64,000 nucleotides of DNA, taken from contig OZ024742.1 in assembly GCA_964016885.1 (NCBI GenBank), forward strand, positions 49,972,001-50,036,000, given 5' to 3'. The notes beneath the pieces are model-generated. The model saw only the letters and a program-made list of their open reading frames with translations. It searched no databases and was not told the origin of the DNA. Position 1 is the stretch's first letter. The number at the start of each line of letters is the position of its first letter. This DNA comes from Eledone cirrhosa. Taxonomy: Eukaryota. A program made the position numbers and the translations under genes. Shown here one piece after another: positions 6,695 to 64,000 of the stretch.

Positions 6695-8092
6695 TGAGGT
6701 CCGTTTTGTATCTGGGTCCATTTTTTTAGGGGTATCCATTTTTTTTATTCGGGCGGTTTTTATTTGAGGGGAGAGTTTTTAATTTAGGGAACCCATTTTC
6801 GTATTTTGGTTTCCGTTTTTTATGGGGGGGGGGGGCTTATTTAGAGGGTCCGTTTTTTATTTGGGGTGGGTTTATTGAGGGGGATCTATTTTTTATGAGG
6901 GGAATTTATTTTTTATTCGGGGGCGTTTTTTACTTGGGGGATCCATTTTCTCATTTTTTTTTTGGGGGGGGGGGCACTTTTTTTATTGAGGGGTCCGTTT
7001 GTTATTTGGGGGATCTATTTTATTATTGAGGGAAGGACCTTATTTTGTTTGTGTGCGAGTGTGGGGGGAATTTTTAATTTGGGGGGATCCATTTTTTATT
7101 GGGGGGGCTCCGTTTTGTTATTTAGGGGGATACCATCTTTTTATTGGCGTGTCCGTTTTTTATGTAGCGGGTCCGTTTTTTTTTATTGTGGGGGTTTATT
7201 GGGGATATCTACTTTTTATCGGGGTGGTCCGTTTTCTATTTGGGGAGGGTGTTTTTTATTAGGAGTAAGCCATTTTTTATTGGGGGCCGTTTGTTATTTG
7301 CCCCACCAATAAAAAGCGCCCACTCCAATTAAAAAAGGCCCGACCCCAAATAAAAACGGACCTCTCCAATAAAAACTGGATCCCCCTATAAAAAATGGAT
7401 CCTTACCAAATAAAAAACGACGTCCAGTAAAAAGTGGATCCCCAAAATAAAAAAAAAACAGACACCCAATAAAAAACGGACCTCCAAAATAAAAACGAAC
7501 ACCCTAATAAAAAATGACAGCCCCCCCCCCCCCAATACAAAACGGAACCCCCAAATAAAATATGGATCCACTCAATAAAAATTGGATCCCTCTAAATAAA
7601 AATTCCCCCCGACCCAAATAAAAAAGGGACCCCGCAATAAAAAATGGAAGCACCCAATAAAAAGTGGAACCCCCAAATAAAAAGCGGTCCACCCAAATAA
7701 ATAAAAACGGACACACAATAAAAAATGAATCCGCCCAAATGGAAAATGGATCCCCCAATGAAAATGGATCCCCCACAAATAAAACAACGGATCCCTCAAA
7801 TAACCCCCCCTCCCCAAAAAATAAATGGACCCCCTGATAAAAAATGGATCCTCAAAATGAAAAACGAAGCCCCCAAATAAAAAATGGATCCCCCGAATAA
7901 AAATCGGAACCCCACCGCAAATTTGGTATTTTTTTCAAGAGGCATATTTCTACAAACCGATGACTCTAATTTTGTTTTGTGGGGATACGGGTCCGTTTTT
8001 TATTTGGTGGGGAGTGTTTTTTATTTGGCTGGATCCATTTTTTTATTTAGCCAGTCATTGGTTTGTAGAAATATGCCTCTTCAAATAATTCC
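6695..8092. repeat. ~20-bp minisatellite in two opposed blocks
   Basis: Units like GGATCCATTTTTTATTGGGG from ~6700-7300, reverse-complement units (AAAAATGGATCCCCCAAAT) 7301-7915, then a short T-rich block 7970-8050 flanked by a 40-bp inverted repeat (7925-7965 / 8053-8092). Confidence 0.85.
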
Positions 8093-9390: not shown

Positions 9391-10030
9391 ATATAATTAT
9401 AATTGAATATAAAAGAAAAACGAATACAGATATATACATATATGAGTTCAAATCGTAAGGGACCAGATTCGCTAAGGTGAAAAGAATACTAACTATAGAC
9501 AATTGGGTTTGCTTGTCTCAATTTAAGAAAATAACAAGAAAATAAATACAAACTGGAATTGTGGTAATTACCGATCACCTACAGTGGGTGATAAATTAGT
9601 ATCCTAGACACTTCTAAGTATATTAAGAAACTGAACAGTGTGCCATATATAATAATAATAGCGCACATGGCGTCCTAGCGTGTCTCACAAACCCACACGA
9701 CTAAAAATAGCAGCCAGGTTTATTAGACATTTGAAATAGTTCAACAAATTAACGGAGCCGAATATATCAAAGGTATATATTGAGTTTGTATTTATTTTCT
9801 TGATTTTTTCTTAAATTGGGACAAGCAAACCCAATTGACTATAGTTAGTATTCATTTCACCATAGCGAATCTGGTCCCTTACGATTTGAACTCATATATG
9901 TATATATCTGTGTTCGTTTTTCTTTTATATTCAATTATAATATACGGCTCGGAAATATCTCTTTCTGAGAGCTATTTTGTTGTAAGAGACTATTTTGAGT
10001 TCCTAACTCAATATATACCTTTGATATGTA
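9391..10030. mobile_element. Non-coding fold-back element in (TA)n with asymmetric tail
   Basis: Arms 9391-9554 and 9783-9943 are near-perfect reverse complements; only the right arm continues, into the bulged hairpin GCTC-GGAAA-TATCTC-TTTCT-GA-GAGC (9947-9972). Confidence 0.7.
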
Positions 10031-10239: not shown

Positions 10240-10676
10240 GTTATTCATTACAAACAAAAGAAAGCTACAATTTTAATTCCGCGAAATAGCCGGGGTTCGT
10301 CATCCGTTGCAAGACTTAGGCGATTACATTAGAAGTTGATTGCAGATTATGGCGAACACCAGCAGAGAATAGAAAATAGAGGACAGATTTGATTTGCCGT
10401 ATACCTGTCATTACATATAACTAATTCAGCTTTCAACTCCTGATGAAATCGCCTAAGTCTTGCATCACGAGGAGATGATGAAACTGGGTCATTGAATTGT
10501 GTATAGTGTTTTTACGAAATTAAAATTTTGAAGAAAGTTTCCAGTCCGACCTTGGGATATTACATCTAGGAAGGATGATTTGTATAACTTCGAGTGCTTT
10601 AATTCATTGCATCGTTGTTTACTAAGCGGAATCACCACTCCTACCCACTGGTAAACAACGTAACATAACCGGAATA
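10240..10676. mobile_element. PLE terminal-repeat fold-back relic with hammerhead
   Basis: 10270-10350 is a diverged inverted copy of 10425-10500; bounded by (TA)n on both sides; contains an HHR and a bulged hairpin at 10539-10557. Confidence 0.6.
10432..10498 (+). ncRNA. Type I hammerhead ribozyme (decayed)
   Basis: CTGATGA (10440-10446), stem II ATCGCCT/AGGAGAT, GAAAC-TGG-GTC, then ATTGAA pairing partly with upstream TTCAAC. Confidence 0.6.
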
Positions 10677-13645: not shown

Positions 13646-14184
<539 letters not shown>

Positions 14185-16596: not shown

Positions 16597-18000
16597 ATAA
16601 AATATCGTTGCCTAAGTCAGAAAGTCATCAGTTTGTTCAATCTGAAGTTATCTAGGTCGAAACAACAATAACAATAACAGCACATTATCGAGTTCTGAAT
16701 ATCTAAATTGATAGACTATAACTTAAAGTACATCTAGTAGTCATTTGTATCATTATAGTTGCATTACAATTTGCACTAAAAGTATGTTGGTTCAGTTAAT
16801 TCCACGCAGAGACTAACTAATTTTAGACATACATTTGTCGTGAGATATTATTTAGTTTGCAATTCCTACCCAATATCTTGTAGATAAATATGGAAAAGAA
16901 AGTTTTGAAAATGTTTATAAGTTATTCATCAAATTTGTGCACTCATAGATTCTGTTGACATGTTTATCATTTTAGAAATAATTTATGACTAAAATACTAT
17001 TAATATAGACTTGTGTGATATGTTAACGGTGCTACGTTCAAATCCTCCATTGAAACCTGAGGAGAGAAAATGAGATCCACTGAGCGTGACTCTTTACAAC
17101 AAATTTCCTATTTAAGTAAGTATAAATATATATGTGTCAAGGTGCATTAAGAACCAGAGGAAACATCTGTGAAACTATGCCGAATATTTAATCGAAAGTT
17201 ACCTGTAATTTTTCTAAGCCAAAAGCCCACAAAACAGAAGTAAAATCAATAAAAGATCATCTAATTGATTGGTACAACGTTGTTCACCAATATGTTAGAA
17301 ATACTAGCACACATGTTCAAAGTGTCTGATTTCTATGTAATATAGTGAGCAGCGAATTTTCTCAGTCATTAGAACGTCAGATAGAATAATTTGGTGTATT
17401 TGCGGTATTTGTTCTGGCTCTCTGACCCCAATGAGTTCAAATCGTGTAAAGTTGAACTTTGGTATTCGATCTTTCGAGGTTTCTAATTGGACCAGAATAC
17501 TACTGCGGCTGATTTTATTTCTTTATTTCTGTTTCTCAATTCCTGTCTCTCCTTTTCTAAAAATAGTCGGCTGTGTTCAAACCCGGAGAAATAATGCGCT
17601 ACGACTAGTTTAAAGTGAGTGTGACAAGCCATATGTCATGACAGCTCCATACCACTCCGACAGAGGTACGGGTCCATATATACATACATACAGCAAACAC
17701 ACTGTGGCTATTTGTGGACACTGATCTGCTGAACTAGTAAGCTGATTACAGCAACAGTTCAAATCTGTCTGAAGACATTACTCAATTTCCCTTGTCATCA
17801 CTTCTGCCTTTCCTTGAAATGTGCCCTACATGACTTCAAGGGATTCCTGACTAGAATCCTACACATTATAGATTTCCTTCATGTCAATGTTTTTTCTCCA
17901 TTCAGCAACATGCACAAATTTAATCTGAGCATCTATTCATTGATTGTAGCAATATAGATTATCGGAGCTACTTCCCTTCAAAATAAACAATTGTTTCTAC

Positions 18001-18172
18001 TTTTGCGCACAAGGCCAGCAATTATCCCAGTGCATTACTGGTGCTTTAATTTATCGACCCAGTAAGGATGAAAGGCAAATTTAACCTCAGTGGGATTTGA
18101 ACTCAGACCGCAAATGGACGTATCTGTATTCTGCAAAGAATGGCGTCCGACCCTCTACCGATTCTGCCAGTC
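18001..18172 (-). mobile_element. Nin-like SINE copy
   Basis: Reverse complement of the head, B-box (GGGATTTGAACTCAG), TTTATCGACCC..GGATGAAAGGCAAA and tail GCACAAGGCCAGCAA. Confidence 0.8.
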
Positions 18173-18949
18173 CACCGTTCCAAATATAAATACAACCCAA
18201 ACATGTATTCACACACCCATACGTTTTTCTCCATCTCACTATCTTTCTTTTCCCCCACCTTGTATATATACACACACACACACACACACACATATAAACA
18301 TACACACATACACACACCCCCACACATATATATATGTATATATATATCGATATGCAAATTAGGCTGCTCATCCGTTAATATGCATAAGGAAAGTATATAC
18401 TTTCAAACGTTCAATCGACTGACAGGAAGGTATATGGTGCTGATGACAGCTAATAAGCTAGAAACTAGTTCAGCGTTCCTTTGTCAGTGTTGAACAAAAT
18501 GGCAACGATGCTTGCCGAACACTGTACGGCTAATAATTCGGGCTGTTTGTTTACAAACACACCGAGCATTATATTAAATGTTCGGTAAACTCATACGTAC
18601 ACACATATATATATATATATATATATATGTGTGCATGCATGTATGTATATACATACTACTGTACGTCTGTATACATATATGTATGTACGTATACATACTG
18701 ATATTTAAATATCAGCCGTACCAAGAGTGAGAAATGAAATTTCATTTTTTCCATTTATATATATAAAATATACATAGTCTCTAACACACAAATATATTAA
18801 ACGCTATAACAAAAACACACTCAATCTTTCTAAGACATAAACATGCATTCGTTTATCACCACATAGTGTTCATCACTGCTTGCGATTATTCAAGCTAACG
18901 GATTGCAGTTAGCTGAAATTTGCAGTGCATATCATGAAATTCAAATTAA

Positions 18950-21944: not shown

Positions 21945-22355
21945 TTTTAAAAAGTGTGCTAAGCAGCCGAACAGTACGATAAAGTTATATCTGTATATAT
22001 ACAGAATGGTTTACTGAGACTGCGAAAATATGTATATAAAATACACACATTTTCAATATGTCGACATGTTAACGTTCCAGAAAATACGAATTTCTCTGTG
22101 AATTGAAAAATTGATAAACACCTTTAATCGAATAATGAATCTAGTTGTGTCCTTATTTTCTGACATATTTACTTATCTACATAATAAAAAGTGTACATTT
22201 ACTTAAATATTGTTGCATTCTCGATTATCAATTCTGTAGACTTCGCTGGCTTAACGAACTTCTTAATATATATATTAATTAACTACCAACACCAGCGCTA
22301 ATTATATGCAAATTAATACGTCTATTTCAGAAGTATTAAGAGCGCATGGGTACAT
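21945..22355. repeat. Two opposed fragments of the ~345-bp hammerhead family
   Basis: 21945-22170 aligns directly with 39505-39720; ~22240-22355 is the reverse complement of 39410-39520. Confidence 0.6.
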
Positions 22356-23446
22356 AATCCCATCAAAGACGTATTTTATTGTAGTTGATATACGTCAATC
22401 TCTTCTATTTTCAGGGAAATTCAAATTTTCTGGCATGTTTACATGTCTGTTCAATTTGGATTGCCTCGGAAACATAACCTTATTATGTAACAAGCTGTCT
22501 GACGAAGTCGCGACACTGGCACAGAGAACAAAGTGGCCACTGTCGCCATTGAAATATATATTCCAGCATTATTATTAAAAGACTTGAACATCTTAAACTA
22601 CTTCGCTTTTCCTTATTCTATACATATATATATATATATATATATAGAATGTAGGAGGTGAGTTTTATTGTAGCACAATAAAGCAATGCAAATATCGGAT
22701 AAGTAGCACTCTACAGTTTGTAGGACTGGCGAAAAACAAACTTAAACCCTAACTAATTTCTTTTAATATATTATATTATTACCATTAGAAAATATTTCGT
22801 AAACATATATACTTTTTGATGTTAGATATTTCCTTCCTTAAACATTCTTTTCTTCTTTCCTTCCGCGCTCATTTTAAACAAACTATTTACGTACACATAT
22901 TACATTACATAAAAACAAACTTAAACTCTAACTAATTTCTCTAAATTCATAACTCATTCATTCTTCTCCTTCTTTTCACATTATATCCTTAATATCATTA
23001 ATATTTTTATTTTAATAATATATATTAATAAATTATTTTCCTCGCACATATTATTAAACCCTTCAATATACAAACCTTAATTTAATACTATTCTTAATTC
23101 CTTTTCTTCATGCATAAACCTCATTAACTTTTAATTTCAAAATCTTTTAAATTATCTATTATCTTCCAACGGCTTTTTAATTTCTCTCTGTGAGGCAATA
23201 TATATTTTTTTCTCAGTTGCAAAGGCTATCTCTCTCTCTCTATCACCCATCTCTCCTCCTCTCTCATCCTTCCTTCTTATACTCCTGCCCCACCATCCTT
23301 TACTCTCATTTCTTCCTTTTCTTTACCTTTTCCAACCCCCCTTCACTTTTTCCCAATCTCATACATCAATCTTAATTTATTTTTCGTATGTTAATTTAAA
23401 ACTTCACTATTCACAAGTGTTCTTTAAACTTCATATCATGTCTCCC

Positions 23447-23503
23447 TATTTTATCTGATGAGAACGCATGATGATATTTGTTTTTGAAATGCGCATAATA
23501 TAA
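23447..23503 (+). ncRNA. Type I hammerhead ribozyme in 5' pseudo-LTR
   Basis: TATTTTAT-CTGATGA-GAAC..GTTTTT-GAAA-TGCGCA-TA^ATA; palindromic stem III; stem II shortened relative to the 3' copy. Confidence 0.8.
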
Positions 23504-23709
23504 CACTTGGAACTATTGTAACCATATTTTGATCTTATATTATTTATACTCCAGTCCTACAAACTGTAGAGTGCTACTTATCCGATATTTGCATTGCTTT
23601 ATGTGATACAATAAAACTCACCTCCTACATTAACTAGCTCCTTAACTGTTTGAGCGCTAACCCTCATAATCGGATACCTTTTGATGGTCTTTAATTCTTC
23701 TTCTACAAC

Positions 23710-26123
23710 ATGGATTATTACAACATAACAACTTCAACTAAAGACATTCCTATACCTGGTAAATCTGAATTCCCTAAACTTCTGATTGAAAAAACTGACT
23801 CCTTTGTGAGAAGGCTTAGATGGATAGCTTTTTTCCACGACCAGCCCCCAAAAGGAAATTTCTATACTAAGGAACATAACATTCTTGATCATTTATTTAA
23901 CTCTAGAAGTAATCCTCCTCTTCCAACAAAAACCTAGAGCAGTTCGAGGAAGAATTAACTAATATTATAAGATGTCTTAAATTCAAGAGAAACCCTTACA
24001 GAGGACAAGAGCACCTTGTAAATATCAGGAATACGATTTTAAACCTTAATTCCTCTAAAAATGTCTTAGTCCACTCCGACAAAACTAATAATTTATATGG
24101 CGTATCTAGGGATAACAATAATAACCTTATCCTTATGGAACTAAGGAAGAATTATCTTAAAATAACCATGACAATTTGGAATCTATAAACTTTGAAGCTT
24201 CTGAGATTATGTCTAAACTTAGCTTTGAAAAAAAGACCGAACCATTCCTCCCAAGAACTCCGAGGATAAATCTCAAGGATCATAAAAGTAATTTTCGAAC
24301 GGAACTGCCTGTTAGACTAATCGCCCCCTCTAAATCAGGTCTGGGGGTTGTTAGTAAAGCCATTTTGAATAGAATTATCCCAGAGGTTCGTTCTAATTGC
24401 TCTATTTCTAACTTAAATTTATGGTTTGGTACATCTGAAGTAATTGGCTGGTTCAACAACCTGAATAAGAAAAACAAACAAAAAATTATTCAATTTGATA
24501 TTGCCAGCTACTAATTCTTCTATTTCGCCTTCACTTCTCAACAACGCTCTATCTTTCGCATTTAAATATTCTGAGATCACCACAGATGAACTTTACATCA
24601 TTCTCACCGCAAGAAAAAAACTATCTTAGAATTCAACAATGAATACTGGACTAGAGCCGATACTTCCAACAACTTTGATATCACAATGAGTGCTTCTGAT
24701 TCATCGCAATTTACTGATTTGATTGGTATTTTTATTTTGAATTCTTTAAATCGGAAAATTCCTCAACTTCGCGGTGGAATTTATCGTGACGATGGACATT
24801 TTACTATCTTAAACTGCAACTTAGTTAACCTTAATATTATTAAGAACAATATACGTGATCTCTTTAAGAAACATAACCGTAAAATTGATTTTGATAACAA
24901 CGTCAAACTAGCTAACTTCTTGAATATATCCCTTAATCTTGACACTGGCCTATATTACCCTTACCATAAAAACAATGAGAATCTAAATTATGTTAATTTT
25001 GAAATCTAACCACCCCACTAACAATAAAAATGCTATAGACAGTAATATTGAAAAAAGAATCTCAAACCTATCCTCTAATAAAGATATCTTCGATGCTAAC
25101 GCCAATTGCTATAATAATGCGCTTTCTAAAAGCGGTTATCCTGATAAAATTAAATACAGTAAAGAAACCAATGCTAGAAGGTCTTACAGTAAAATAATTA
25201 ATTATGAACATTCCAATAACTTAAATAAAAGATCTAGATACAAACATATAATATGGTATAATGCTCCTTTCTCTATATCTATTAATAATAATATTCCTAA
25301 ACTATTCTTTAGGGCCTTAGATAAATGCTTCCCTCCCTCACACATCTATAGTAAAATCTTTAACAAACATACAATAACATGTTCTTATTCCACCACTTCC
25401 AGCATCTCTAACACTATCTCTAAACACAACAATAAAATATTAAATAATAAATCACATCCTTCCAACACTGAGCGTCATAATAATAGTAGTAGTACTCCCG
25501 ACGTCATTGTTAACTCTAGGCTAGATTCTGTAAACTTAAATGCGACGTCAAACGTAACTTCGTTGAATGTTCATAATACCAATCTAAATCAGGAAACTAT
25601 TATTCCTATCGCAAATAACTTCTCCGATCCAATTCCTTCTATAAATAACACTAGGTCACTTGTTAATAACTCTGTTAATTTCTCTAATCGTAATTGTAAT
25701 TGCCCTATTAAAACTAAATGTTCTCTTAATAACCATTGTCTTCATAAAAACTTAGTCTATGAATGTAAGGTTATAACTGATACCAATTCCTTTACCCATT
25801 TCGGTTCCACTTCCACTTCCTTCAAAGCTAGATTTTATAATCACAATTCGTCTTTTAAATACCAACTTAAAAGAACTAACACGGCACTCTCAGAACTCAT
25901 ATGGTCCTTGAAAAACAAAAATATTAACTATAACATCACTTGGAGGAAGCTTTGTTCTGCCTTTCCTTACCTGAATTCTTCCCTATCCAGAATATGTAAT
26001 CTCTGCCTAGCTGAGAAATTTACCATTATATCTAATTTCAATTCTATGATAAATAGACGCACGAATTTATTTTCTCTCTGCTTGCATAAATTCCACAGAA
26101 CATTCCATAAAGTATACCGCTAA
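23710..26123 (+). pseudogene. PLE RT-GIY-YIG polyprotein, frameshifted
   Basis: Joined ORFs: STKDIPIP..LIEKTDSFVRRLRW, LKDHK..PVRLIAPSKS, IQFDIASY, GIYRDDG, IIWYNAPFS, CNC..CSL..CL..LVY, FGST..FKARFYNH, CNLCLAEK, CLH. Confidence 0.92.
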
Positions 26124-27254
26124 TATACCTTACTAGTTTAAAATCCTTTTTCTCAAAGGCTTATATATGTTTTACAAATATACCCATCGTTCTACCTTAT
26201 TTCAATATTATATATTATATAATACAATTTACTCATTCTATATCATCCTCTTTATCATTTCCTTTTTTCCTTTTTTCTTTTTAATTTCTAACCTCTATTC
26301 TGTACCTTTTCTTCCCAACTACTTCTCAATTATTATTATTACTCACCACAACATTATCCATTCTTCCATCTTTCCTCATATCATTGGCCATAACAGTTAT
26401 TTTTTTAATACATTATAATATTACCATTAGAAGTCCTTCGTAAACATATACATTTTTTGACGTTAGATTTTTTTCTTCCTTAAATGTTTCATATCTCTTC
26501 TATCCTTTCATGCTCGTTTTAAACTACTACTTAATTTGACTTTTACGTATTACAATACATAAAAACAAACTTAAACCCTAACTAATTTCTTTTAATATAT
26601 TATATTATTACCATTAGAAAATATTTTGTAAACATATATACTTTTTGATGTTCGATATTTTCTTCCTTAAAAATTCTTATCTTCTTTCTTTCCGTGCTCA
26701 TTTTAAACAAACTATTTACGTACACATATTACATTACATAAAAACAAACTTAAACTCTAACTAATTCCTCTAAATTCATAACTCATTCATTCTCCTCCTT
26801 TTCACATTATATCCTTAATATCATTAATATTTTTATTTTAATAATACATATTAATAAATTATTTTCCTCGCACATATTATTATACGAACCTTAATTTAAT
26901 ACTATTCTTAATTCCTTTTTCTTCATGCATTAACCTCATTAACTTTTAATTTCAAAATCTTTTAAATTATCTATTATCTTCCAACGGCTTTTTAATTTCT
27001 CTCTGTGAGGCAATATATATATTTTTCTCAGTTGTAAAGGCTATCTTTCTCTATCACCCATCTCTCCTCCTCTCTCATCCTTCCTTCTTATACTCCTCCC
27101 CCAACATCCTTTACTCTCATTTCTTCCTCTTCCTTACCTTTTCCACCCCCTCCCTTTTTCCCAATCTCATACATCAATCTTAATTTATTTTTCATATGTT
27201 GATTTAAAACTTCACTATTCACAAGTGTTTTTTAAGCTTCACATCATGTCTCCC

Positions 27255-27325
27255 TATTTCATCTGATGAGAACGCAAATATCATCCCATGATTATATCTG
27301 GTTTTGAAATGCGCATAATAAAATA
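27255..27325 (+). ncRNA. Type I hammerhead ribozyme in 3' pseudo-LTR
   Basis: TATTTCAT-CTGATGA-GAAC-(long stem II)-GTTTT-GAAA-TGCGCA-TA^ATAAAATA; intact core, 7 of 8 stem I pairs. Confidence 0.88.
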
Positions 27326-27410
27326 CTCGGAACTCTTTTACCCATCTTTTACCCATCTTTTAGCCATGTAAATTATTTTTCTTTATAATATATGTATATA
27401 TATATATATC

Positions 27411-27621
27411 CAGGGAGTGTAACGCCGAGTTACTCTAGGTTCATACAGTTGAGCACTCGATGTTTAGGTTAATTCTGTCATTACTACCCCTGAGGTCCGC
27501 TGAGCCATTGATTACAGAGTTGGGCAAGATCGATACAGATCGAACCTTGAGCTGATCAATAGCGAAACGAGCGTCACCAACCAATAAATCTTAATGACTG
27601 AGTAACCATTTATCCTTGTTT

Positions 27622-27626
<5 letters not shown>
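27411..27626 (+). mobile_element. Short PLE terminal relic (inverted tail + decayed HHR)
   Basis: AGCACTCGA (27452-27460, inverted TCGAGTGCT tail motif); CGAAAC-GAGC-GTC-ACCAACC with upstream GTTGG; TA runs on both sides; catalytic core degenerate. Confidence 0.45.
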
Positions 27627-27701
<75 letters not shown>

Positions 27702-27774
27702 TCTGATCTGATGCCTATGTGTGTGTGTGTAATCATTTTACTATAATAAACAACACTATGAACCTAATGATTTC

Positions 27775-27925
27775 TAACTCAGGTATAAGGCCAACAATTT
27801 GTAGGGAGGATGACTCAGATTGTATCCACGCCAGTACATTATTAATACTATATTTTATCGATCTCGAGTAAGTGAAAAGCAAAATTGACTTAAGTGAGAT
27901 TTGAACTCAATGCGAAGATGGCAGG
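27775..27925 (-). mobile_element. Degenerate Nin-like SINE
   Basis: TTTCTAA..ATAAGGCCAACAA, TTTTATCGA, GATTTGAACTCA in the same order as 18001-18172. Confidence 0.6.
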
Positions 27926-28337
27926 AAAAGGTTTGCTAAATAACAGCCGACACACAAACGGAATGTAAAGCCTCCATAAATGTTCCTCAAAGCAAATTTT
28001 CGAAACTTTAATTATTCTGGTCAAATACCCTCATGTTATGGTTAAGGTTTGTAACCTTACACCACATGCTATCTTCGGTTCCTTTGCAATGATTTTGACA
28101 ATTTATCAATATTTTGATAAATTTTCTGACCTAGGAAAGATAACATCAAAAGGTGTGACGATTTTAATTTGGCTAGACTTTAAATCACACACACACGCAC
28201 ACTCAGACACACAAACACACATACACACACAGAGACACACATAGACACACACACACACACACACACACCTCATATATATATATATATATATATGTAAAAT
28301 AAATCAAAGAACGCCTACATACTCCTACCATTTTTAT

Positions 28338-29607: not shown

Positions 29608-29815
29608 GGGTGGTGAATTGGCAGTATCGGTAAAGGGTCGGACGCCATGCTTTGACGCATAGAGTTACGGCCCTTGCCATTCTGAGTTCAAATCCTGCCG
29701 AGGTTAACTTTGCCTTTCATCCTTAGGGGGTCGATAAAATAAAGTACCACTAATGTACTGGATAGTTGCTGGCCTTGTGCCAATAGAACTAACAATTACT
29801 TGATAATTATTAATA
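29608..29815 (+). mobile_element. Nin-like SINE copy
   Basis: Complete head GGTGGTGAATTGGCAGTATCGG, B-box, Nin-like domain and ATT tail. Confidence 0.85.
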
Positions 29816-30172: not shown

Positions 30173-30177
30173 TATAA

Positions 30178-31957
30178 TGGTAGAACACTGGAAGGTAATA
30201 TCCGTAGTGGTAGAGCACTCAGTCCATGGGACGAGTTAGGTAGAAGTGGTCACACAAAGTTAGTTCACGATACCGAGAACAATAGTTTCACCTTAGCGGA
30301 ACCTCAGCTTGTAATGAACATTGTTATACGGAACAGGTAGGACAACCGTACGAACGCGCAGGTGCAGAAACGAATACTTCACACATGCAATACTAAAATG
30401 CGTGCGAGAGATGTAAGGGAGATAACTGCGAAAGTCCGAAACATTTCTATTTGATACGAAAATTAGGATGTTGTTGTAATTCAATACGGAGCTTTCTAGT
30501 TACGTAATACGTGTTTCGAGACGTGTGGACAACGTGTGAAGAATTCATTTCTCGTGTTTAGGCAATCGCTATTGCATAATCTCTTTAGAATAATTATTCG
30601 TTCCTCAATACATAGTCCACACGACATATTACGTGTTAGATTCCCGGACGTCCACACGGGAATATACCGCGAAGATGGACTGACCTTATCGAGCCATAAA
30701 AGTGGTCACGACCTCTACCGGTTTATAAAAGACTTAGCTTCTACCTTAAATGAGTTAGGACTTAGTATAACAGTAGCTACCAACCTCTCTAGCGTAGATT
30801 TCTTAGACATTAATTTAGACCTTCGCACACACACCTACAAACCCTTCCATAAGCTGAACGAAAAACTCAATTACATTCACACGGACTCATGCCACACTCC
30901 CACTGTTTTTAGAAACATCGCAAATAATATCAGTACTAGAATCTCAAATCTCTCCCCTAATAAGGCTATCTCTGACAGGGTGGCACCCTACTATAACACG
31001 GCGTTAGCTAACAGCAGCTTCTCGCAACCTATCACTTACTCTCCCACTATCAACAACAGCAATAAGAAAAGAAAGCGTAACAATACACAAAATATCTGGT
31101 TCTCTCTTCCCTTCTCACTCAACGTTAAAAGCAATGTAGGCGAAACATTTCTAGCCCTCTTAGATAGACACTTTCCCATAGGTCATAAATACCACTTCAT
31201 CTTTAACCGACACAAAGTAAAACTAGGATACTCCTGCGCTAAGAACATGAAGGCACACATCACCAACAGCCCTAAGAGCAACACTCGTAAGCCCGAGGTT
31301 GGTTCCCTTCAACAGCAATGCAACACACCCGCTGTAGTTTCTGAAGCTGTGGTCACTTCCAACCGACCAAATCAACCACAGGAGGTCAAATCCTACATGG
31401 GTATGGGGGAGGGCCACTTTAAGGAACCCTTCCTGAACCACCAGTCGACCTTGAGGTACACGGACAGATGTTCATCCACGAAACTCGCGAGCCACGTATG
31501 GTCCCTCAATGACTCAGGTATAGACTACTCCATTCAATGGTAAGCCATCACTAAGTCAAAGCCATACGCAAGGGGAAATCTGTCGTGTATGTATTGATGA
31601 ACGCGTAAATATTCTAAAGAGATTATGCAATAGCGATTGCCTAAACAGAAGCAATGAATTCTTCACACGTTGTCCACACGTCTCGAAACACCTCTTACGT
31701 AACTACAAAGCTCCGGATTCAATTACAACAACATCCTAATTTTCTTATCAACTAGAAATTTTTCGAACTTTCGCAGTTATCTCCCTTACACCTCTCGCAC
31801 GCATTTTAGTATTGGCTGTGTGAAGTGATCGTTTCTGCGACAGTGCGTACGTACGATTCTCCTTCCTATTCCGTAAAACCATGTCCATTTGGAGGTGAGG
31901 ATCCGCTAAGGCGAAACAATCGTTGTCGGTATGGTGAACTAACTGTTTTGTAACCAC

Positions 31958-31962
<5 letters not shown>
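30178..31962 (+). mobile_element. 5'-truncated PLE with inverted terminal arm (old)
   Basis: Arms 30241-30630 and 31577-31962 are diverged reverse complements; left-only tail 30178-30240; TA flanks; HHR remnants at 31888-31933 (+) and 30270-30314 (-). Confidence 0.9.
30635..31739 (+). pseudogene. PLE RT C-terminal half + GIY-YIG, disrupted
   Basis: GIYREDG, VDFLDINLDL, IWFSLPFS, YMGMGEGHFK..NH, TKLASHVWSL, stop at 31541, then CIDER..LNRSNEFFTRCPH. The first ~33 codons of the ORF-track call are inverted arm sequence. Confidence 0.88.
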
Positions 31963-33208: not shown

Positions 33209-33447
33209 GTATATATATATATATTTATATATATATGTATATATATATGTATATATATATATATGCATAAATATATATGCATATATATATATAAAGATAT
33301 ATACATATATATACATGTAAAGTTATATTTAAAATTGTTGGGTTACAACTAGTAAATATTTATAACTGATATAAAAGCACTCGACAAATACTTGGAGTAT
33401 ATTTACAATATTAAATAAATGGAAAACTATATTTATAAAACCATATT

Positions 33448-33513
33448 TATTTCATTATATATATTTCGGGGATATCATATTAACAATATGCTATGCCTTC
33501 ATCAGACAAAATA
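33448..33513 (-). ncRNA. Type I hammerhead ribozyme, inverted arm copy
   Basis: Reverse complement of 37615-37680. Confidence 0.82.
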
Positions 33514-33876
33514 CAATATAAACAGTTTTATAGATAAATATATTCGACATACCGTAATAAACATCAACTTCATTTGAAGAGGTTCACTCTAGCAGTGAAA
33601 ATACAGAGAGAAAGAAAGAGAGAGAGAAAAGAGGGAAATAAGAAAGAAAGAAAGACGAAACGAAGAAAAGGAAGAAAAAGAAGAAAAAGAAGAAATGCAT
33701 GGGACAAAATAGAGAGATGGAAAAATAGATAAAGCGAAGAGCTTCATGTAAAGAGACCGAAAGAGATATATATATATATAGAGAGAGAGGAAATAGAGAT
33801 AGATACATATATAAATATAGATATAGAAAAATTAGGTAGTGGGAGGTCATTTTGAGTAAGTGTATCAATGATGCAT

Positions 33877-33911
<35 letters not shown>

Positions 33912-34601
33912 GCTCAAGTATTAATGTAAGGGAGATATAGAGAGATATAGAGAGATATAGAGAGAGAAAAATTTAAAAATAGCCAGACATATTCGAGGCG
34001 TAGAAAACCCTATGTTTTAATGTATTAGTATTTATAAAACTTACACTATATTGTAAATATCAGTATTCCTGAATGAAACAAGTATTCACAATGCGTGAAA
34101 ATTCATTATCTTATGTTTAGTTTTTTTAAAAAATTCATATGTCTATGTGAATCCAACTGATTCACTCCGCAAATTCAAAGTTACCGGAAAACATTCTCAA
34201 TGTGGTATAAACATTTGAGCGTATTATTATTCTTGCGATTACTCTACAAGATTATCTATCAAGCAGAAATAGAGAGCAGATTTCAATATACTAATCGAAA
34301 ATATATATTATATTATAAGCAGAGATAACAATAATAATGATAATAAGTAAAAATATATAAAAATATAAAAATATAGAATAGAAAACTAAAAAAGAATATT
34401 ACGAAAGAATATTACATAATAAAAATATTGCATATTAAAAATACTATGTTTTAAAATTATTACGTATTAAAACTTTACATATAAAAACTTTACATATAAA
34501 AATATTAAAAATAAAAATAAAATAAAATAAAAAATAAAAAATAAAAATATAAAAATATTATAGAATACTACAATACTAAAAGAATAAAAATAAAAATAAA
34601 A

Positions 34602-36098
34602 ATTGAGTGGTTTAGGCAAATTAAATATGACAATAATAATAGGTTTATTCAACTTGATATAGCTAACTATTATTCTTCTATTACCCCTAGTCTACTAAAT
34701 AAGGCACTAAATTACGCATTCAAACATACGGACCTAACTAGCAAAGAAATGCATATTATATTATCGGCTAGGAAAACTTTGATAGAATTTGATGACAAAT
34801 TATGGACCAGAGCAGATAGAGATAGCAATTTTGACATAACTATGGGATCTTCCGACTCAGCTCAAGTAACTGACCTTGTGGGCTTATTTTTAATCAATTC
34901 GCTACATAGGAAAATACCTGGTACTACCGGAGGTTTATATAGGGATGACATGCTTTTACTCATTAATAATAATAACCCTGAACTAAATAGAAAATGTAAA
35001 CAAATTACAAAATTTTTTAATTACTTTAACCTTAAAATAGAAATTGAGAACAACCATAGAATAGTCAATTTCCTAGATATAACATTAAATCTCAACACAT
35101 GTCTCCACTATCCTTTTCACAAGTTGAATGAAAACTTAAACTATGTCAACTTTAACTCTAACCACCCCAGATCTGTCAAAAACACTATAGTAAACTCAGT
35201 CCAAAAGCGTATCTCTAGGATCTCGTCGAATAGAAAGATTTTTGACGAAAAGGCCCAATACTATAATGATGCACTAGCTAGGGCAGGGTATGCTGATAAG
35301 ATTGTGTACATAGATAATGATAAACAAACTAAACAAAGTAACAACTTTTTTAATTATGGCAACAACATTAACAACTATAATAGAAAGCATTACAATAATT
35401 CCAAAGGACAAAAAAGAAATAGAACTAGGAACATAATTTGGTTTGCCCCCCCTTTCTCACTAAACATTAAAACCCACATCGCTAAATTATTTTTCAAAGC
35501 TCTTGATAATCGCTTCCCTAGAACACATAGGTACCACTCAATCTTCAATAGGCATACAATTAAATTAACCTATTCATCCACCAAAAATTTAGCACAAAAT
35601 ATTAATAGAATAAATAATAGGAACTTAAAAACTACTGATAATAGCATAAATAATATACAAGTTAACAAATGCAACTGTAGAGATAGATCTAAATGTCCGT
35701 TAAATAACAACTGCTTAGTTAAAAATATAGTATACAATTGTAATGTTAATACTGACTCTAATTCTTTTAACTACGTCGGTTCCACATCGACGGAATTTAA
35801 ACTTCGCTATAATAACCACAAGAATTCTTTCACAGATCCAAATAAAAAATCTTCAACGGCACTATCAGGTGTACTCTGGCAACTTAAGCTAGATAACGTT
35901 AGATATTCGACGGCTTGGAATATAGTCTCAAGAGGGATTCCTTTTAATTCATCCTCTGAGACATGTGACCTCTGCGCAGAGGAGATATTCTTTATACTAA
36001 AATCTAAAAATTCCCTTAACCTACGGACAAATTTATTCAGTTGTTGCAAACATAGATTAAACTCAACGTTTAAATATAAATTTAAATTTAAAATGTAG
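34602..36098 (+). CDS. PLE reverse transcriptase-GIY-YIG ORF, N-truncated but uninterrupted
   Basis: Frame is open 49 codons upstream of the tracked Met (IEWFRQ..FIQLDIANYYSSI); then ITMGSSDS, LYRDD, CNCR..CPL..CL..IVY, YVGST..FKLRYNNH, CDLCAEE, LNLR..CCKH. Confidence 0.92.
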   Translation: MEWFRQIKYDNNNRFIQLDIANYYSSITPSLLNKALNYAFKHTDLTSKEMHIILSARKTLIEFDDKLWTRADRDSNFDITMGSSDSAQVTDLVGLFLINSLHRKIPGTTGGLYRDDMLLLINNNNPELNRKCKQITKFFNYFNLKIEIENNHRIVNFLDITLNLNTCLHYPFHKLNENLNYVNFNSNHPRSVKNTIVNSVQKRISRISSNRKIFDEKAQYYNDALARAGYADKIVYIDNDKQTKQSNNFFNYGNNINNYNRKHYNNSKGQKRNRTRNIIWFAPPFSLNIKTHIAKLFFKALDNRFPRTHRYHSIFNRHTIKLTYSSTKNLAQNINRINNRNLKTTDNSINNIQVNKCNCRDRSKCPLNNNCLVKNIVYNCNVNTDSNSFNYVGSTSTEFKLRYNNHKNSFTDPNKKSSTALSGVLWQLKLDNVRYSTAWNIVSRGIPFNSSSETCDLCAEEIFFILKSKNSLNLRTNLFSCCKHRLNSTFKYKFKFKM

Positions 36099-37216
36099 TA
36101 TATTTAGTTTGATTTATATTTATATGAGAACTAGCCGATAAATCTTTTGATTCCTAAATCTTTGATTCCCTCTTTTTACTGTTTATTTTATTGTATTTAT
36201 TTTTATTGTATTTATTTTTTATTTTTATTTTTATCTAAACATTCCTCATGAAAAATTAAGCTACCCTAAAAGCCGATGCTCCAAATTTTATGAATTAACC
36301 TTACACTTGATAAACTTATATATTAAATATAGGAACATATGTAGACATTATTGGACATCATAACCTTTTTTTTTTTTTTTTTGCGATATTCCTTGCTAGA
36401 TGTGATTTGATAGATAATTTTTGGCTTTGTCTTGTAGTGAACTTGGCAATATATTGTCAATTAACCTTGAAGGGTTGTTCTTTGTGGTTTATTTTTTATT
36501 TTTATTTTTATTTTTATTTTTATTTTTATTTTTATTTTTATTTTTATTCTTTTAGTATTGTAGTATTCTATAATATTTTTATATTTTTATTTTTTATTTT
36601 TTATTTTATTTTATTTTTATTTTTAATATTTTTATATGTAAAGTTTTAATACGTAATAATTTTAAAACATAGTATTTTTAATATGCAATATTTTTATTAT
36701 GTAATATTCTTTCGTAATATTCTTTTTTAGTTTTCTATTCTATATTTTTATATTTTTATATATTTTTACTTATATTTTTACTTATTATCATTATTATTGT
36801 TATCTCTGCTTATAATATAATATATATTTTCGATTAGTATATTGAAATCTGCTCTCTATTTCTGCTTGATAGATAATCTTGTAGAGTAATCGCAAGAATA
36901 ATAATACGCTCAAATGTTTATACCACATTGAGAATGTTTTCCGGTAACTTTGAATTTGCGGAGTGAATCAGTTGGATTCACATAGACATATGAATTTTTT
37001 AAAAAAACTAAACATAAGATAATGAATTTTCACGCATTGTGAATACTTGTTTCATTCAGGAATACTGATATTTACAATATAGTGTAAGTTTTATAAATAC
37101 TAATACATTAAAACATAGGGTTTTCTACGCCTCGAATATGTCTGGCTATTTTTAAATTTTTCTCTCTCTATATCTCTCTATATCTCTCTATATCTCCCTT
37201 ACATTAATACTTGAGC

Positions 37217-37251
<35 letters not shown>

Positions 37252-37614
37252 ATGCATCATTGATACACTTACTCAAAATGACCTCCCACTACCTAATTTT
37301 TCTATATCTATATTTATATATGTATCTATCTCTATTTCCTCTCTCTCTATATATATATATATCTCTTTCGGTCTCTTTACATGAAGCTCTTCGCTTTATC
37401 TATTTTTCCATCTCTCTATTTTGTCCCATGCATTTCTTCTTTTTCTTCTTTTTCTTCCTTTTCTTCGTTTCGTCTTTCTTTCTTTCTTATTTCCCTTTTT
37501 TCTCTCTCTCTTTCTTTCTCTCTGTATTTTCACTGCTAGAGTGAACCTCTTCAAATGAAGTTGATGTTTATTACGGTATGTCGAATATATTTATCTATAA
37601 AACTGTTTATATTG

Positions 37615-37680
37615 TATTTTGTCTGATGAAGGCATAGCATATTGTTAATATGATATCCCCGAAATATATATAATGAAATA
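37615..37680 (+). ncRNA. Type I hammerhead ribozyme at PLE 3' end
   Basis: TATTTTGT-CTGATGA-AGG-C-ATAGCATATT-GTT-AATATGATAT-CCCC-GAAA-TATATA-TA^ATGAAATA; 8-bp stem I, extended stem II, palindromic stem III. Confidence 0.85.
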
Positions 37681-37720
37681 AATATGGTTTTATAAATATA
37701 GTTTTCCATTTATTTAATAT

Positions 37721-37818
<98 letters not shown>

Positions 37819-41775: not shown

Positions 41776-41779
<4 letters not shown>

Positions 41780-42437
41780 TGTTAGACTTGGGGAGGGTCA
41801 TATTTGTGTAATATTGCCAGAATTAATAACAGAACACACTCACTGTTTGGTTGGTTTTCGCTTTTCGCTTCTGTGTCTTTTATATCAGTAAACTAATTTA
41901 CTCGGTCCTCAATGTTGCTATTGACTGACCGACGGTCAAAAATAATACAGATACAATATAGACACAAACACATATATATAGTTTATCATAAATCTTTCGT
42001 TGCACATCTGCAACATCGTCAGTGGTGCTATTGTTTCCTCCCGTTGCATTGTATGTCTACGCCATTTTTTTTAATTTTTTTTTTAAACTAAATAAAAATG
42101 GCATAGACTTACAATGCAACGGGAGGAAACAATAGCACCACTGACGATGTTTCAGATGTGCAAGGACAGATTTATGATAAACTATATATATGTGTTTGTG
42201 TCTATATTGTATCTGTATTATTTTTGACCGTCGGTCAGTCAATGGCAACATTGAGGACCGAGTAAATTAGTTTACCGATATAAAAGACACAGAAGCGAAA
42301 AGCGAAAACCAAACAGTGAGTGTGTTCTGTTATTAATTCTGGCAATATTACACAAATATGACCCTCCCCAAGTATAACAATAATTGTTTCGACACACGAT
42401 TTCATATAAAAAACCTCGCAAAACTAATTCATCGCCG

Positions 42438-42438
<1 letters not shown>
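41776..42438. mobile_element. ~300-bp-arm fold-back element with hammerhead, in (TA)n
   Basis: 41776-42070 pairs with 42090-42383; right-only extension 42384-42438. Confidence 0.85.
41983..42028 (-). ncRNA. Type I hammerhead ribozyme in left arm
   Basis: Minus strand CCA-CTGACGA-T-GTTGCA-GATG-TGCAAC-GAAA-GATT-TA^TGAT; right-arm copy (42148-42180) mutated in stem II and GAAA; stem I weak. Confidence 0.7.
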
Positions 42439-52312: not shown

Positions 52313-52512
52313 NNNNNNNNNNNNNNNNNNNNNNNNNNNNNNNNNNNNNNNNNNNNNNNNNNNNNNNNNNNNNNNNNNNNNNNNNNNNNNNNNNNNNNNN
52401 NNNNNNNNNNNNNNNNNNNNNNNNNNNNNNNNNNNNNNNNNNNNNNNNNNNNNNNNNNNNNNNNNNNNNNNNNNNNNNNNNNNNNNNNNNNNNNNNNNNN
52501 NNNNNNNNNNNN
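52313..52512. other. Assembly gap (200 N)
   Basis: Run of N. Confidence 1.
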
Positions 52513-59829: not shown

Positions 59830-62545
59830 CAGCCTTTTTGGATTTGCTTTACGTTTTCGACTGTGATTTTGTGTTTCATTTGTTTTATTTGTGTGAGCTA
59901 ACCTGCCGCCTGGACTTGCAGACGGGTGGTTATTTTATTTTTACCCTTTTTGGGGGTAAAAACTACTTTGAAAAATGTGTATACCAACTTACAATAATGG
60001 ATACCATACATGAAAACACCACAGCCACGCCCCCGAGGGAAAGTGATAAAGAGGAACAAGTAACTCAACCTACTGAAGCTTCCCGTCTCACGCTTTCGCA
60101 TGCGAGTATGGAAGGCGATTTGGCGAACAATTGTAAAAACTTGGGTAATAACCCAAACAATGGAAACAGTAAATTGAAAGAATGTATAAATTACACTGAC
60201 ACCTACAACACCAACACAAATAACAAAGAAAATAACACAAACACACAAACACGAAAACAGCAGCAACAATGACAAAGAAAACAACATAAATGTGAACTCG
60301 AAACCCGAGAGAATGGGTGAAAACACCCCAAAACTGTACCGCAAACAACATCAATCAAAACGCAAACACCCAAGAAAATAAGCACAACAGCAACGAAACT
60401 CAAAAAAAGACCCACTACACGAATATCGTTTGTCCAAGTCGTTAAGGACACCGAAACTTCCACCCCAGTTGACTTCAGTAATGCAGCGGAATTGCTAAAA
60501 GAGGGGGGGGGGAAATAGGTGAGGTTTGGTGAAAACGGTGAATTCACCATAATCTCCCCTAAGGATATTAAAAGAGACACAAAAATTACACAGACACAGC
60601 TATACACATACTTCAACACAAACAATATAAAACTTGTAAACAAAATTGAACAAAACCCTTCTGTGCAAACCGAAGGGCCAAATTTCACGAGGGACACAGA
60701 GAAAAATTATTAAAACTCCGATAGACATTGTCTTTTAGTTCTATATAAATGTCTATCGGAGTTTTCATAATTTTTCTCTGTGTCCCATTCAAACATCCTA
60801 CTCTCAATACAGCCATGTTGGCGGCGAAAGGGAAGAAAAAGAAAAGGCACCTATCTCTTTACGTCCCGGGGACCGGGCTGCACAACTTCCATAGGGGTGA
60901 AGGAGGGGTTGTTGGGTGGGAGGGACATCAGAGTGTGGTGGGGTTTGGGTGTTTGGTGTGGTGTGGGTGTCTGCGGTAGGGGTGGGGAAATGTTTCAAGA
61001 GGACCCGGTTCATTGGTTTTACACAGGGGGGGGGGGACCCAAGTCCTCAGGAAAATTGTCTTTTAGTTCTATATAAATTTTCCTGAGGACTTGGGCCCCC
61101 CTCCTGTGTAAAACCAATGAACCGCGTCCTCTTGAAACATTTCCCCACCCCTACCGCAGACAACCACACCCCACCAAACACCCCAACCCCACCACACTCT
61201 GATGTCCCCCCCACCCAACAACCCCTCCTTCACCCCTATGGAAGTTGTTCAGCCCTGTCCCCGGGACGTAAGGTGATAGGTGCCTTTTCTTTTTCTTCCC
61301 CTTCGCCGCCAACATGGCTGTATTGAGAGTAAGATGTTTGAATGCGCGTGGCCTGAGCTCACCTTGGAAGCAGGCAAAACTTCTAAATGACCCCAGGTAG
61401 CGCAGTATAAATGACATGGCTATTTGCGAGTCCAAGGTCAGCACGAACGCCAGCTAGTCCCCACCTTTAACGACTTTGAGATCTATGCATCTCTCTGTCA
61501 GCCAGGAGGTGGGGGTGGGGTTGTCGTTCTGCTTCAAAAAACACCTGGGCCTCGCAACGGAGACGGTGCACTTGGACCCGGTGGGTCGGCTGGTGGTACT
61601 AGACGTTGGCAGTGGTGAAGGTGGAGACTTTATGCTGGTCGCCTTTTGGGGCAGTGAGGCCGGACTTCATCTATCGTCTGGAGACTTTTAGTGGCGGACT
61701 GGAATGGTATCCTAGATGCACGTTGGGACTATATAGGAGCATGTCTTGACAGAGACGGGTGTAACAGCCTCAAACGGTTAATCGGCCGATTTGACCTGGC
61801 CGATAGATATCGACAAAATTTTCCGACTGCGCCAACCTGGACTTGGATTAACCGTAGCGGATCATCTAGGTCGTACCTAGATAGGGTCCTAGTTAGAAAT
61901 AAATATAGGGACCTACTAAGTTGTCCAGAGATGCGCATGGTTGGCTATTCAGATCACAAATTATTGACCTGCTTAGTCAACCTTGATAGAAAGCATAGAC
62001 AGGGACCCGGTTACAGGAAGCTGAACTTGTCCTTACCGGCAAGTAAAGCTTACAGGGATCGGATTAGTGCTTTAGTTAAGAGACGGTTGACGGGGGCTAT
62101 CGTCAACAGCAGGTGGTGGGGATCTCTCAAGAGAGAGATTAGAGTAGTCTCGATAGGTTTTAGTAAGGAATTAGCCTCAGATAGGAATAGGAAGGAAAGG
62201 GAGTTGGTAGATAGAGTAGAAGAAGCGATTAGAAGCGGCAACGTAGCCAGAGTGCTAGTGTCAAGAACGGCCTTAAACCAGTTTTTCGACGCGAAAGACC
62301 GATTTCAGCTGCTGAAATAGGGGACGTGCTGAGCCAATGTGGCACACGAAAATCCCCGGGTCTCGATGGTCTTCAATACGAACTTTATGTAGCGATGCCG
62401 GACTTTTTCTCCGATCTCCTCGAGGCGGTTTACTGCAACTGGCAACAGAACGGGAGAATTTCTTGTTCTATGACCAAGGGCGTAGTCTCGCTAGTGAGGA
62501 AGGACGAGGACAAGGGGGATGAAATAAGTAATAACCAGGATCCCA
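59830..62545 (+). mobile_element. Tx1/L1-like LINE, rearranged (ORF1 remnants, APE endonuclease, RT start)
   Basis: ORF2 start 61314 MAVLRVRCLNARGL; DWNG, TWTW, SYLDRV, SDH, GPGYRKLN, KSPGLDGL. Confidence 0.85.
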
Positions 62546-64000
62546 GCAGAGGTCAACATATGGTGGATCCTACGCTGCATCCTGAAGAAGGATGAGGACA
62601 CCCTCCTATCTGTAGACAGGAAAGACCGGCATAACTGGTTTGGAACCTGCATCGATGTTCTGGTACAAATGAGACCAGAGAGAGTTGAGAAAATACCGGA
62701 CAGGATCGTCTTTGAGGTAGATGTCATCTCCACTTTAGTGGAGGGGAAAAGACCTCAGTGCCATAAGTGTGGGAAAACCATACACTTAAAGGCCTTTTGC
62801 CCTCTCTTAAACAAACCGAGGACAAACAAGGTGTTATTACCAACACCAAAACCCCAACATCAACACTCCAAACCAAACACAACACAAACACCTGCAACAT
62901 CCACTCACACACCACCACAGAACAGAGACAACCACACACACAAAATCCCACTGAAAAACCCTCCATTGCCTCTTACCACCCTGTCAAATACTTCCACAAA
63001 CACCTGCACAAACACTCTACCACACAACATACCGCTTCCATCTACCCCTGATTCAGAAGTCACAGACACCGGAGCCTCTACATCTAAAAGTGAGAATGAA
63101 GAGGAACCCCAAAATCCAAAAAACAAAAAAAGACACACAAAAGACACAAAAACATCTACAGAAAACACGCACACACCCAACCACACCATAAACACACCGC
63201 GACAAACGACAAACACACCAACAACACAATCACCAGCAACACAACCAAACACTTCACCAACAAAACAAACACCCACACCACCACAATCACAAACCCCAAC
63301 CACAAAAAGAAAACTACAAACAGAAACATTACACATAAAAAACAAAACACAATACACATACATAAAAACAAAGAACTGGTGGAAACTGTCCAAAGCGACC
63401 CCTCAATACAAACGGAAGGGAAAACCTTCCCCACCAACGACCCACCTCCAAACCTCAAACTTATCAGGGTAACAACCCTACAGTATGAAACTTTAAAAGA
63501 GAACTTCCCACATGATGTGGGCCACCCTTGCCAAAAGCCCCTTAACCGTGTCCTGCTAAAAGAATTACGTCTCTCCCCAAACTCTACCAATCTGGACATG
63601 GAGATCGAACAACCCGACCTCCAAGAAACGAAAAGGTAAGTTTTCATGCCTTTTCTCTCCTTCTTCACCAACATGTCCTGGAAACAGGGCTAGCTTTTAA
63701 ATGATCTCAGGTCAAATTGTATAGATGTGATAGCCATCACTGAGTCCAGGATTCACGAAAAGCAGCAGCTAACCCCCATATTCGATGATTTCGAGTTCTA
63801 CGCATCTCTCTCTCAGCCAGGAGGTGGAGGGGGAGTTGCTGTTCTGTTTCGAAAAAAACTTGGATCTCAAAATACAGACGATTCACTTGTACTCGGAGGG
63901 CAGCCTGGTGGTCCTGGACGTGAATGTTAGTGAAGGTGGAGCTTTCAGACTGGTGGGCGTATATGCCCCGACTGGGACATCGCGACCAGGGTTCTTCAAG
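62545..64000 (+). mobile_element. Second Tx1/L1-like LINE: ORF1 with zinc knuckle and start of endonuclease
   Basis: CHKCGKTIHLKAFC knuckle, T/P-rich region, NFPHDVG..NRVLLK (homologous to 61079-61140), IAITESR..GGGVAVLF; continues past the window. Confidence 0.85.

Follow-up and report, generated by a model that had tools for sequence, protein, structure and literature searches.

A decayed Penelope-like element (PLE), referred to here as element A, lies in a 64,000-nt stretch of the Eledone cirrhosa genome (NCBI GenBank assembly GCA_964016885.1, contig OZ024742.1, positions 49,972,001 to 50,036,000, forward strand; hereafter the window) and carries at its 5′ end an inverted copy of nothing but its own tail. 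On its motifs and homologs A is a full-length member of a known clade, the Hydra clade, inserted in (TA)n. Its tail-only inversion represents the structure usual for such elements in an extreme form, with no separate rule required. In A and in four neighbouring insertions (B, C, G and D) the sequences support two fixed terminal sites about 60–140 nt apart, one of which is used at each insertion end; we denote these site 1 and site 2, the tail being the sequence between them. In the reading we favour, with a probability of roughly 0.55, both ends of the cut target were primed, one at each site, and the two cDNAs were joined head to head, with A as the shortest-arm case. The rule of two fixed sites, as proposed in a preliminary description of this DNA, is thus seen in five insertions, and had already been demonstrated for a Poseidon PLE, through in vitro reactions as well as genomic copies (PMC11167929).

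The same description took the first ~80 bp of A for an inverted copy of the segment that follows the pseudo-long terminal repeat (pLTR), and alignment confirms this: the reverse complement of 23551–23631 matches 22648–22729 in 80 of 82 columns, with one substitution and one indel, and a local score of 152 as compared to 29 for the best of 300 shuffles. The inverted tail joins the 5′ pLTR, which starts at 22732, through 2 nt that fully match neither template; at this junction there is neither microhomology with the pLTR-side template nor a palindrome, and (TA)n is likewise absent from it. Site 1 reads TATA followed directly by CTCCA in A and B alike, which places it between 23548 and 23549 in A; the inverted arm of A ends 0–2 nt from the site located in this way. 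The internal tail ends 78 nt before the ATG of the open reading frame (ORF).

The two pLTRs of A (22732–23530 and 26561–27350) differ by 37 substitutions in 777 columns, in line with pLTRs that derive from a partial tandem. Exact hammerhead cores are present in both (23455–23497 and 27263–27317; predicted ribozymes), of which the 5′ copy fits the stem descriptor and the 3′ copy does not. An Rfam search of 22000–28000 at E<=1 returned neither hammerhead and four low-complexity chance matches.

Comparison was made within the set of hammerhead-bearing inverted insertions A, B, C, G and D; two further insertions, E and F, were left out as no hammerhead core was found in them and they could not be oriented, and a third, H, because its hammerhead is within the chance rate. 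With 124 homologs as tblastn queries, three regions of the window were matched, corresponding to A, C and B, and all three of these Hydra-type ORF regions sit in inverted insertions between (TA)n tracts, with tails of 82 (A), 84 (B) and 64 nt (C) on the 5′ arm. In B, the 84-nt tail and a 1206-nt inverted arm lie on the left, only 2 substitutions separate the arms over 1191 columns, and the direct arm extends about 1.9 kb past the inverted one; B appears very young, and its uninterrupted 517-codon frame for reverse transcriptase (RT) and endonuclease (EN) suggests that the family may have been recently active. In C, the tail of 64 nt is followed by an inverted arm of 390 nt, and 385 aligned columns of the two arms contain 46 substitutions; as in A, these are unevenly spread (30241–30370 vs 31834–31962: 24/128 near the hammerhead and site 1, vs 22/257 upstream; p=0.007). 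The right (3′) arms of B and C stop just before the tail, whilst G carries a tail of about 136 nt on its right. The tail is therefore found on exactly one arm in all five insertions, the end of A being uncertain, as compared to an expectation of 1/32 under independent, even choice. The arms overlap in four of the five (B by 1206, C by 390, D by about 300 and G by about 95 nt).

Directly after A, between TA tracts, lies the candidate insertion H (27410–27624). Its minus strand reads GAGTGCT at a distance of 44 nt from the tract, and its plus strand has a degenerate hammerhead (27497–27575). The latter is within chance, since the descriptor has six matches in the window vs 0–5 in six shuffles, and no internal inverted duplication was found within H. 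H may be a second tail-only inversion.

Features of element A and of the comparison insertions (positions in the window)
Feature	Position	Strand	Remarks
Left (TA)n target tract	22624..22646	no strand	One extra base, 22647, separates the tract from element A
Inverted tail of A	22648..22729	-	Outer end is site 2; inner end 0-2 nt from inferred site 1
Head-to-head inversion junction	22730..22731		2 nt untemplated, or 1 mismatch and 1 tail base
5′ pLTR of A, a 5′-truncated copy of the 3′ untranslated region (UTR)	22732..23548	+	Alignable to the 3′ pLTR through 23530
Type I hammerhead core, 5′ pLTR	23455..23497	+	Predicted cut after 23497; lacks the 12-nt stem II stretch of the 3′ copy
Internal direct tail, 83 nt	23549..23631	+	Between site 1 (23548/23549, inferred from B) and site 2 (23631); GAGTGCT at 23569-23575
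Broken single ORF, RT (YRDD) and C-terminal GIY-YIG-type EN	23710..26123	+	3 frame changes, 4 stops
Part of the 3′ UTR preceding the segment that the 5′ pLTR duplicates	26124..26560	+	Old internal duplication: 26400-26596 vs 26587-26775, 80%
3′ pLTR of A, alignable part	26561..27350	+	Second hammerhead core 27263-27317; last 64 columns more diverged
Probable 3′ terminus of A	27351..27387	+	Alignment unreliable: an 11-bp triplication (27334-27367) ends here, then 20 AT-rich nt ending TTTATA
Right (TA)n target tract	27388..27409	no strand	Short; followed by the separate candidate insertion H
Element B, young Hydra-type PLE	33314..37730	+	Inverted tail 33314-33397; inverted arm 33398-34603; ORF truncated at its 5′ end, 34605-36098; direct arm (36528-37730) stops at site 1
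Element C	30177..31962	+	Tail (30177-30240) and arm (30241-30630) inverted; remnant of an ORF; direct arm (31577-31962) stops at site 1
Element G, no ORF	10240..10674	+	Left: diverged inverted hammerhead arm without tail; right: direct hammerhead and tail with GAGTGCT
Element D, no ORF	41776..42438	no strand	Head-to-head palindrome, about 300-nt arms, hammerhead core, 55-nt extension at right end only; without GAGTGCT

The heptamer GAGTGCT is common to the tails of A, B, C, G and H (at 23569, 33376, 30214, 10592 and 27452, respectively). Six of the ten GAGTGCT sites in the window fall in these tails, and about three sites in all are expected from base composition. Inspection by eye of the supplement to PMC8557442 reveals that several published Hydra consensi have the related GAGCACT or GGTGCACT behind a short stem; of the six novel Hydra consensi given there, three end before a related motif-bearing tail and three end with it. 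These two end classes independently support the existence of two termini in the clade. The GAGTGCT-type motif is possibly a signal for RT binding or initiation. Site 1 is preceded by TATA in A and B and by TA in C, so that pairing with a nicked (TA)n primer would be possible.

The geometry of the insertions, the identities between their arms, the clade motifs and the restriction of the tail to one arm are read directly from the window, whilst for another clade it has been demonstrated that RT starts at two internal sites and that both strands are extended. Frangieh 2024 (PMC11167929) reports two adjacent internal RT start sites, with the tail as the sequence between them and genomic ends falling on them; both target strands were cleaved and extended by the protein, for which a dimer is predicted, and the steps after initiation are left unvalidated. 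In the mechanism that we favour, a (TA)n tract would be cut and both DNA ends would prime reverse transcription. At one end priming would occur at RNA site 1, which lies about 51 nt downstream of the hammerhead cut, and about 4.7 kb would be copied, comprising the 3′ pLTR, the ORF, the internal tail and the truncated pLTR; at the other it would occur at site 2, about 83 nt beyond site 1, and in A the tail alone would be copied, before the two cDNAs were joined head to head. Neighbours B, C, D and G would be the same product with longer arms, and the layout of A would be the canonical inverted 5′-truncated copy plus one-end tail, with the inverted arm at its minimum. Since the arms can overlap, the general case would need either two RNA templates or re-copying with strand displacement. 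We infer that both strands are primed in the same integration event, and likewise the number of templates and the cause of the short-arm stop at site 1 in A.

Several observations weigh against this reading. Beyond the 7-nt motif the tails can hardly be aligned (pairwise shuffle p 0.006–0.37), and a conserved tail hairpin could not be established, with none of the five tails folding clearly better than its shuffles (z +0.06 to -2.07). The tail of G starts after AAGT instead of TA, the centres of D and E are perfect palindromes, which would fit a folded-back cDNA at least as well, and self-BLAST of the 64-kb window revealed no other copies of the family of A. In the available part of PMC11167929 the strands are reported not to differ in start site, and the pairing of sites in each event, as well as inverted products, are outside its tests. 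That the 3′ pLTR of A ends at site 1 is plausible, although the mapping is unproven at the level of single bases. It had been described as stopping about where the tail would begin, and in favour of this both the 3′ end of A and the site-1 side (23548) finish in TTTATA; however, homology stops at 23530/27350, 18–20 nt short, and the alignment of the last 20 nt (27368–27387) with 23531–23548 is no better than those of 5000 shuffles (p=0.43). The terminal 37 nt of A have no convincing match elsewhere in the window.

The divergence of the 3′ end of A is a further difficulty. The last 64 aligned pLTR columns contain 10 substitutions, vs 27/713 upstream (p=0.0004) and 1/81 in the tail (Fisher p=0.0025), and with the repeat array excluded the terminal columns still have 6/47 (p about 0.01 vs both the tail and upstream). 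A permutation test supports a changepoint in divergence (p=0.005; best position 23473, with a wide interval of 23196–23504), and transversions make up 7 of the 10 substitutions in the diverged end vs 8 of the 27 upstream. The tail, at 1/81, is compatible with the pLTR baseline of 27/713 (p=0.35). An inverted tail copied from RNA just past the end of the 3′ pLTR would be expected to be as diverged as that end, and it instead resembles the internal tail; with moderate evidence from one copy, its low divergence fits poorly with a template at the 3′ junction of that RNA. A template jump at the ribozyme cut was considered as the origin of the switch in divergence and remains a weak lead: there are 7/33 substitutions downstream of the cut vs 30/744 upstream, but the best changepoint (23473, in the interval given above) does not single out the cut, most of the excess in C falls in the last bin but one, which spans the hammerhead and the sequence immediately upstream, and the accessible part of PMC11167929 reports no reads ending at the cut.

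A stricter proposal is that all Hydra-clade inverted integrations obligately pair site 1 with site 2, as set by a clade-wide cis-acting signal of the tail, which would begin with CTC(C/T) and continue with a short stem and GAG(T/C)(G/A)CT, and that A, and perhaps H, record a collision in which the RT started at site 2 meets the site-1 hybrid on a shared RNA. Taken as a whole, we regard this as tentative and rather doubtful. If true, its asymmetric dimer would explain head-to-head inverted pLTRs with a one-sided tail, and it would be testable from junction statistics alone.

PLE RTs without RNase H would leave an RNA–DNA hybrid as a block. This bears on strict twin priming, which the preliminary description had advanced for A as priming by both target strands on one transcript. 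In its full form the two target ends would prime at sites 1 and 2 of the same RNA junction, the RT started at site 2 would halt at the site-1 hybrid so that the pieces do not overlap, as in L1 5′ inversions, and longer arms elsewhere would reflect read-through by strand displacement. In favour of this, the inverted arm of A stops 0–2 nt from the inferred site 1, a proximity with a rough chance of ~0.9% per insertion, estimated from only three arm lengths and for a case picked after the fact. Should the 3′ end of A lie at site 1, its breakpoints would be 0–2 nt apart, as compared to gaps or overlaps of 1–10 bp in L1 twin priming (PMC11702581), and H, which has no internal inverted duplication, may be a second tail-only case. 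Against it, four of the five insertions overlap, by about 95–1206 nt; moreover, proportionally fewer differences separate the inverted tail from the internal tail (1/81) than separate the adjacent 3′ end from its twin (10/64 or 6/47), A was selected because of this very coincidence, and the hammerhead of H is no better than chance. We consider strict twin priming on one transcript unlikely. In the literature searched, which did not extend to subscription reviews (including Arkhipova 2005–2006), no statement was found that applies twin priming to PLEs or that sets out the obligate pairing proposed above.

A single cDNA that primes on itself, by fold-back of its 3′ end or a switch to its own strand, with element-specific endonuclease cuts at the tail borders leaving a one-end tail, would make the inverted arm a copy of the same cDNA, and this prediction fits B (2/1191), the tail of A (1/81) and the centres of D and E. 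This explanation predates, and is unneeded given, the in vitro finding that the tail borders are RT start sites (PMC11167929), the junction of A shows neither palindrome nor microhomology, and the direct arm of B continues about 1.9 kb beyond the inverted arm and is thus no simple snap-back; we judge self-priming to be quite improbable. Least probable of all is a composite or post-insertion origin of A (the 3′ end of an older copy, a separate tail-only insertion in the same (TA)n, gene conversion or assembly error), which could draw on the diverged, transversion-rich 3′ end of A, the comparable excess near the end of C, the serial insertions that (TA)n tracts take here (H beside A) and the disturbance of assemblies by such structures (PMC8557442), but which is opposed by the seamless join of inverted tail to 5′ pLTR, a tail divergence compatible with a single age, the recurrence of the same layout in B, C, G and D, and a sole N run in the window (a 200-N assembly gap, 52313–52512) that is far from A.

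The description of A as a full-length PLE holds, with the qualification that the copy is broken. The ATG at 23710 aligns with residue 1 of homolog P0010 and homology reaches about 26105; the frames run 1, 3, 2, 3, with the four stops in the frame-2 segment. Compared with full-length homologs the fragments fall in the right order, and inspection by eye also matches them to Hydra proteins in the literature. Pfam gave no relevant match for any of the five fragments of A, nor for B, C and four homologs, and the RT–EN assignment of A rests on homologs and motifs. A search with the intact 517-aa ORF of B yielded 711 homologs, the best named one among the 120 listed being an Argonauta hians hypothetical protein. 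The Hydra motif DKT (a modified DKG) is present in the fragment of A at 23913, and CxCx5C, CxxC and CxH occur at 237, 337 and 365 of its 378-aa fragment; CCHH is absent, with just one Cys inside the GIY-YIG-like core. The RWK position near the N-terminus reads RWI in the decayed A, and RWK or RWR in homologs. As for Hydra-clade insertion, (TA)n is found on both flanks, and the 82-nt inverted tail provides the one-end tail plus inverted 5′-truncated copy characteristic of EN-containing (EN+) PLEs. The unit 23549–27387 is about 3.8 kb long with an ORF of 2.4 kb, and so exceeds the clade tendency of <3 kb. Between RT and EN (25440–25690), A also has an Asn/Ser-rich insert of about 80 aa that the homologs lack, and which recalls the N-rich inserts of Adineta PLEs (PMC3846280).

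Other structures in the window were noted in passing. A head-to-head palindrome at 13646–14058 (7 substitutions in 185 columns), flanked by TA repeats on both sides and with a 38-nt extension on the left only, has a tRNA-like head (ARAGORN tRNA-Ser, 13792–13865, minus strand) and looks like a tRNA-derived short interspersed element (SINE) integrated with PLE-like geometry; no other copies were found in the window, and the literature searched contained nothing evident on PLE-mobilised tRNA SINEs. At 9396–10027, among TA-rich repeats, a spacer separates inverted arms of 159 nt, and about 80 nt more extend the structure on the right; here 10005–10027 also matches 9764–9786 in inverted orientation. 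Nested palindromes at 60691–60786 and 60786–61344, followed by a tandem duplication (61365–61631 vs 63679–63945, 71%), look like another retroelement region, and 6742–7913 is a large degenerate palindrome of about 20-bp tandem units in opposite orientations. A dispersed repeat of about 190 nt, probably a SINE family, is present in four copies with 77–91% identity, including 1002–1441, 17984–18176 and 29611–29801.

Inverted 5′-truncated copies of variable size and one-sided tails are reported as typical (PMC8557442, PMC3846280, PMC2377424), for which EN-mediated resolution (PMC8557442) and self-priming (PMC3846280) have been proposed, and Craig 2021 (PMC8557442) treats the inverted structures as an open mechanistic question. 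The two-site rule itself was already demonstrated in 2024 (PMC11167929); the present observations extend its signature from the Poseidon to the Hydra clade, with longer tails (64–136 nt), and point to a conserved tail motif. What remains of interest is the proposed pairing rule and the clade-wide motif. Element A, as a single decayed copy, is an illustrative limit case, with no new mechanism. Active Penelope-like families have been reported in Octopus vulgaris (PMC13282606); tails go unmentioned in the available parts of that study and of a retrozyme preprint (10.64898/2026.07.22.740005).

Compared with known systems, A most closely resembles the Hydra clade of C-terminal EN+ PLEs (Craig et al. 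2021, PMC8557442; e.g. Hydra-1_Obim and Penelope-13_HM), with which it shares DKT, the CxCx5C linker, CxxC and CxH around the EN end, the lack of CCHH, a type I hammerhead and a (TA)n target. In this decayed copy RWI stands in place of RWK, and A differs in its length, for which its long 3′ UTR accounts, and in a tail of 83 nt as compared to 30–40 bp, the conserved tail motif being uncommented in the available part of that work. With PAc / Poseidon_Ac of Anolis (PMC11167929), A shares two adjacent RT start sites that bracket a tail downstream of the hammerhead, as well as an AT-rich target; PAc belongs to a different clade and its sites lie inside the ORF, whereas the tail of A ends before the ATG, and the accessible PAc text covers neither inverted arms nor which site each end uses per event. 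Compared with the canonical inverted pLTR structure (D. virilis Penelope and Adineta Pen2a_Av; PMC2377424, PMC3846280), the inverted copy in A consists of nothing but the tail and there is no terminal inverted repeat; a target-site duplication would be unreadable in (TA)n. As in L1 twin priming (Ostertag and Kazazian 2001; cited here after PMC11702581 and PMC3649969), the target ends appear to have been extended in opposite orientation and joined internally. L1, however, uses the poly(A) end and a variable internal site chosen by microhomology on one RNA, whilst in the PLEs described here both sites are fixed and internal, and the arms of all four comparison insertions overlap, most by hundreds of bases.

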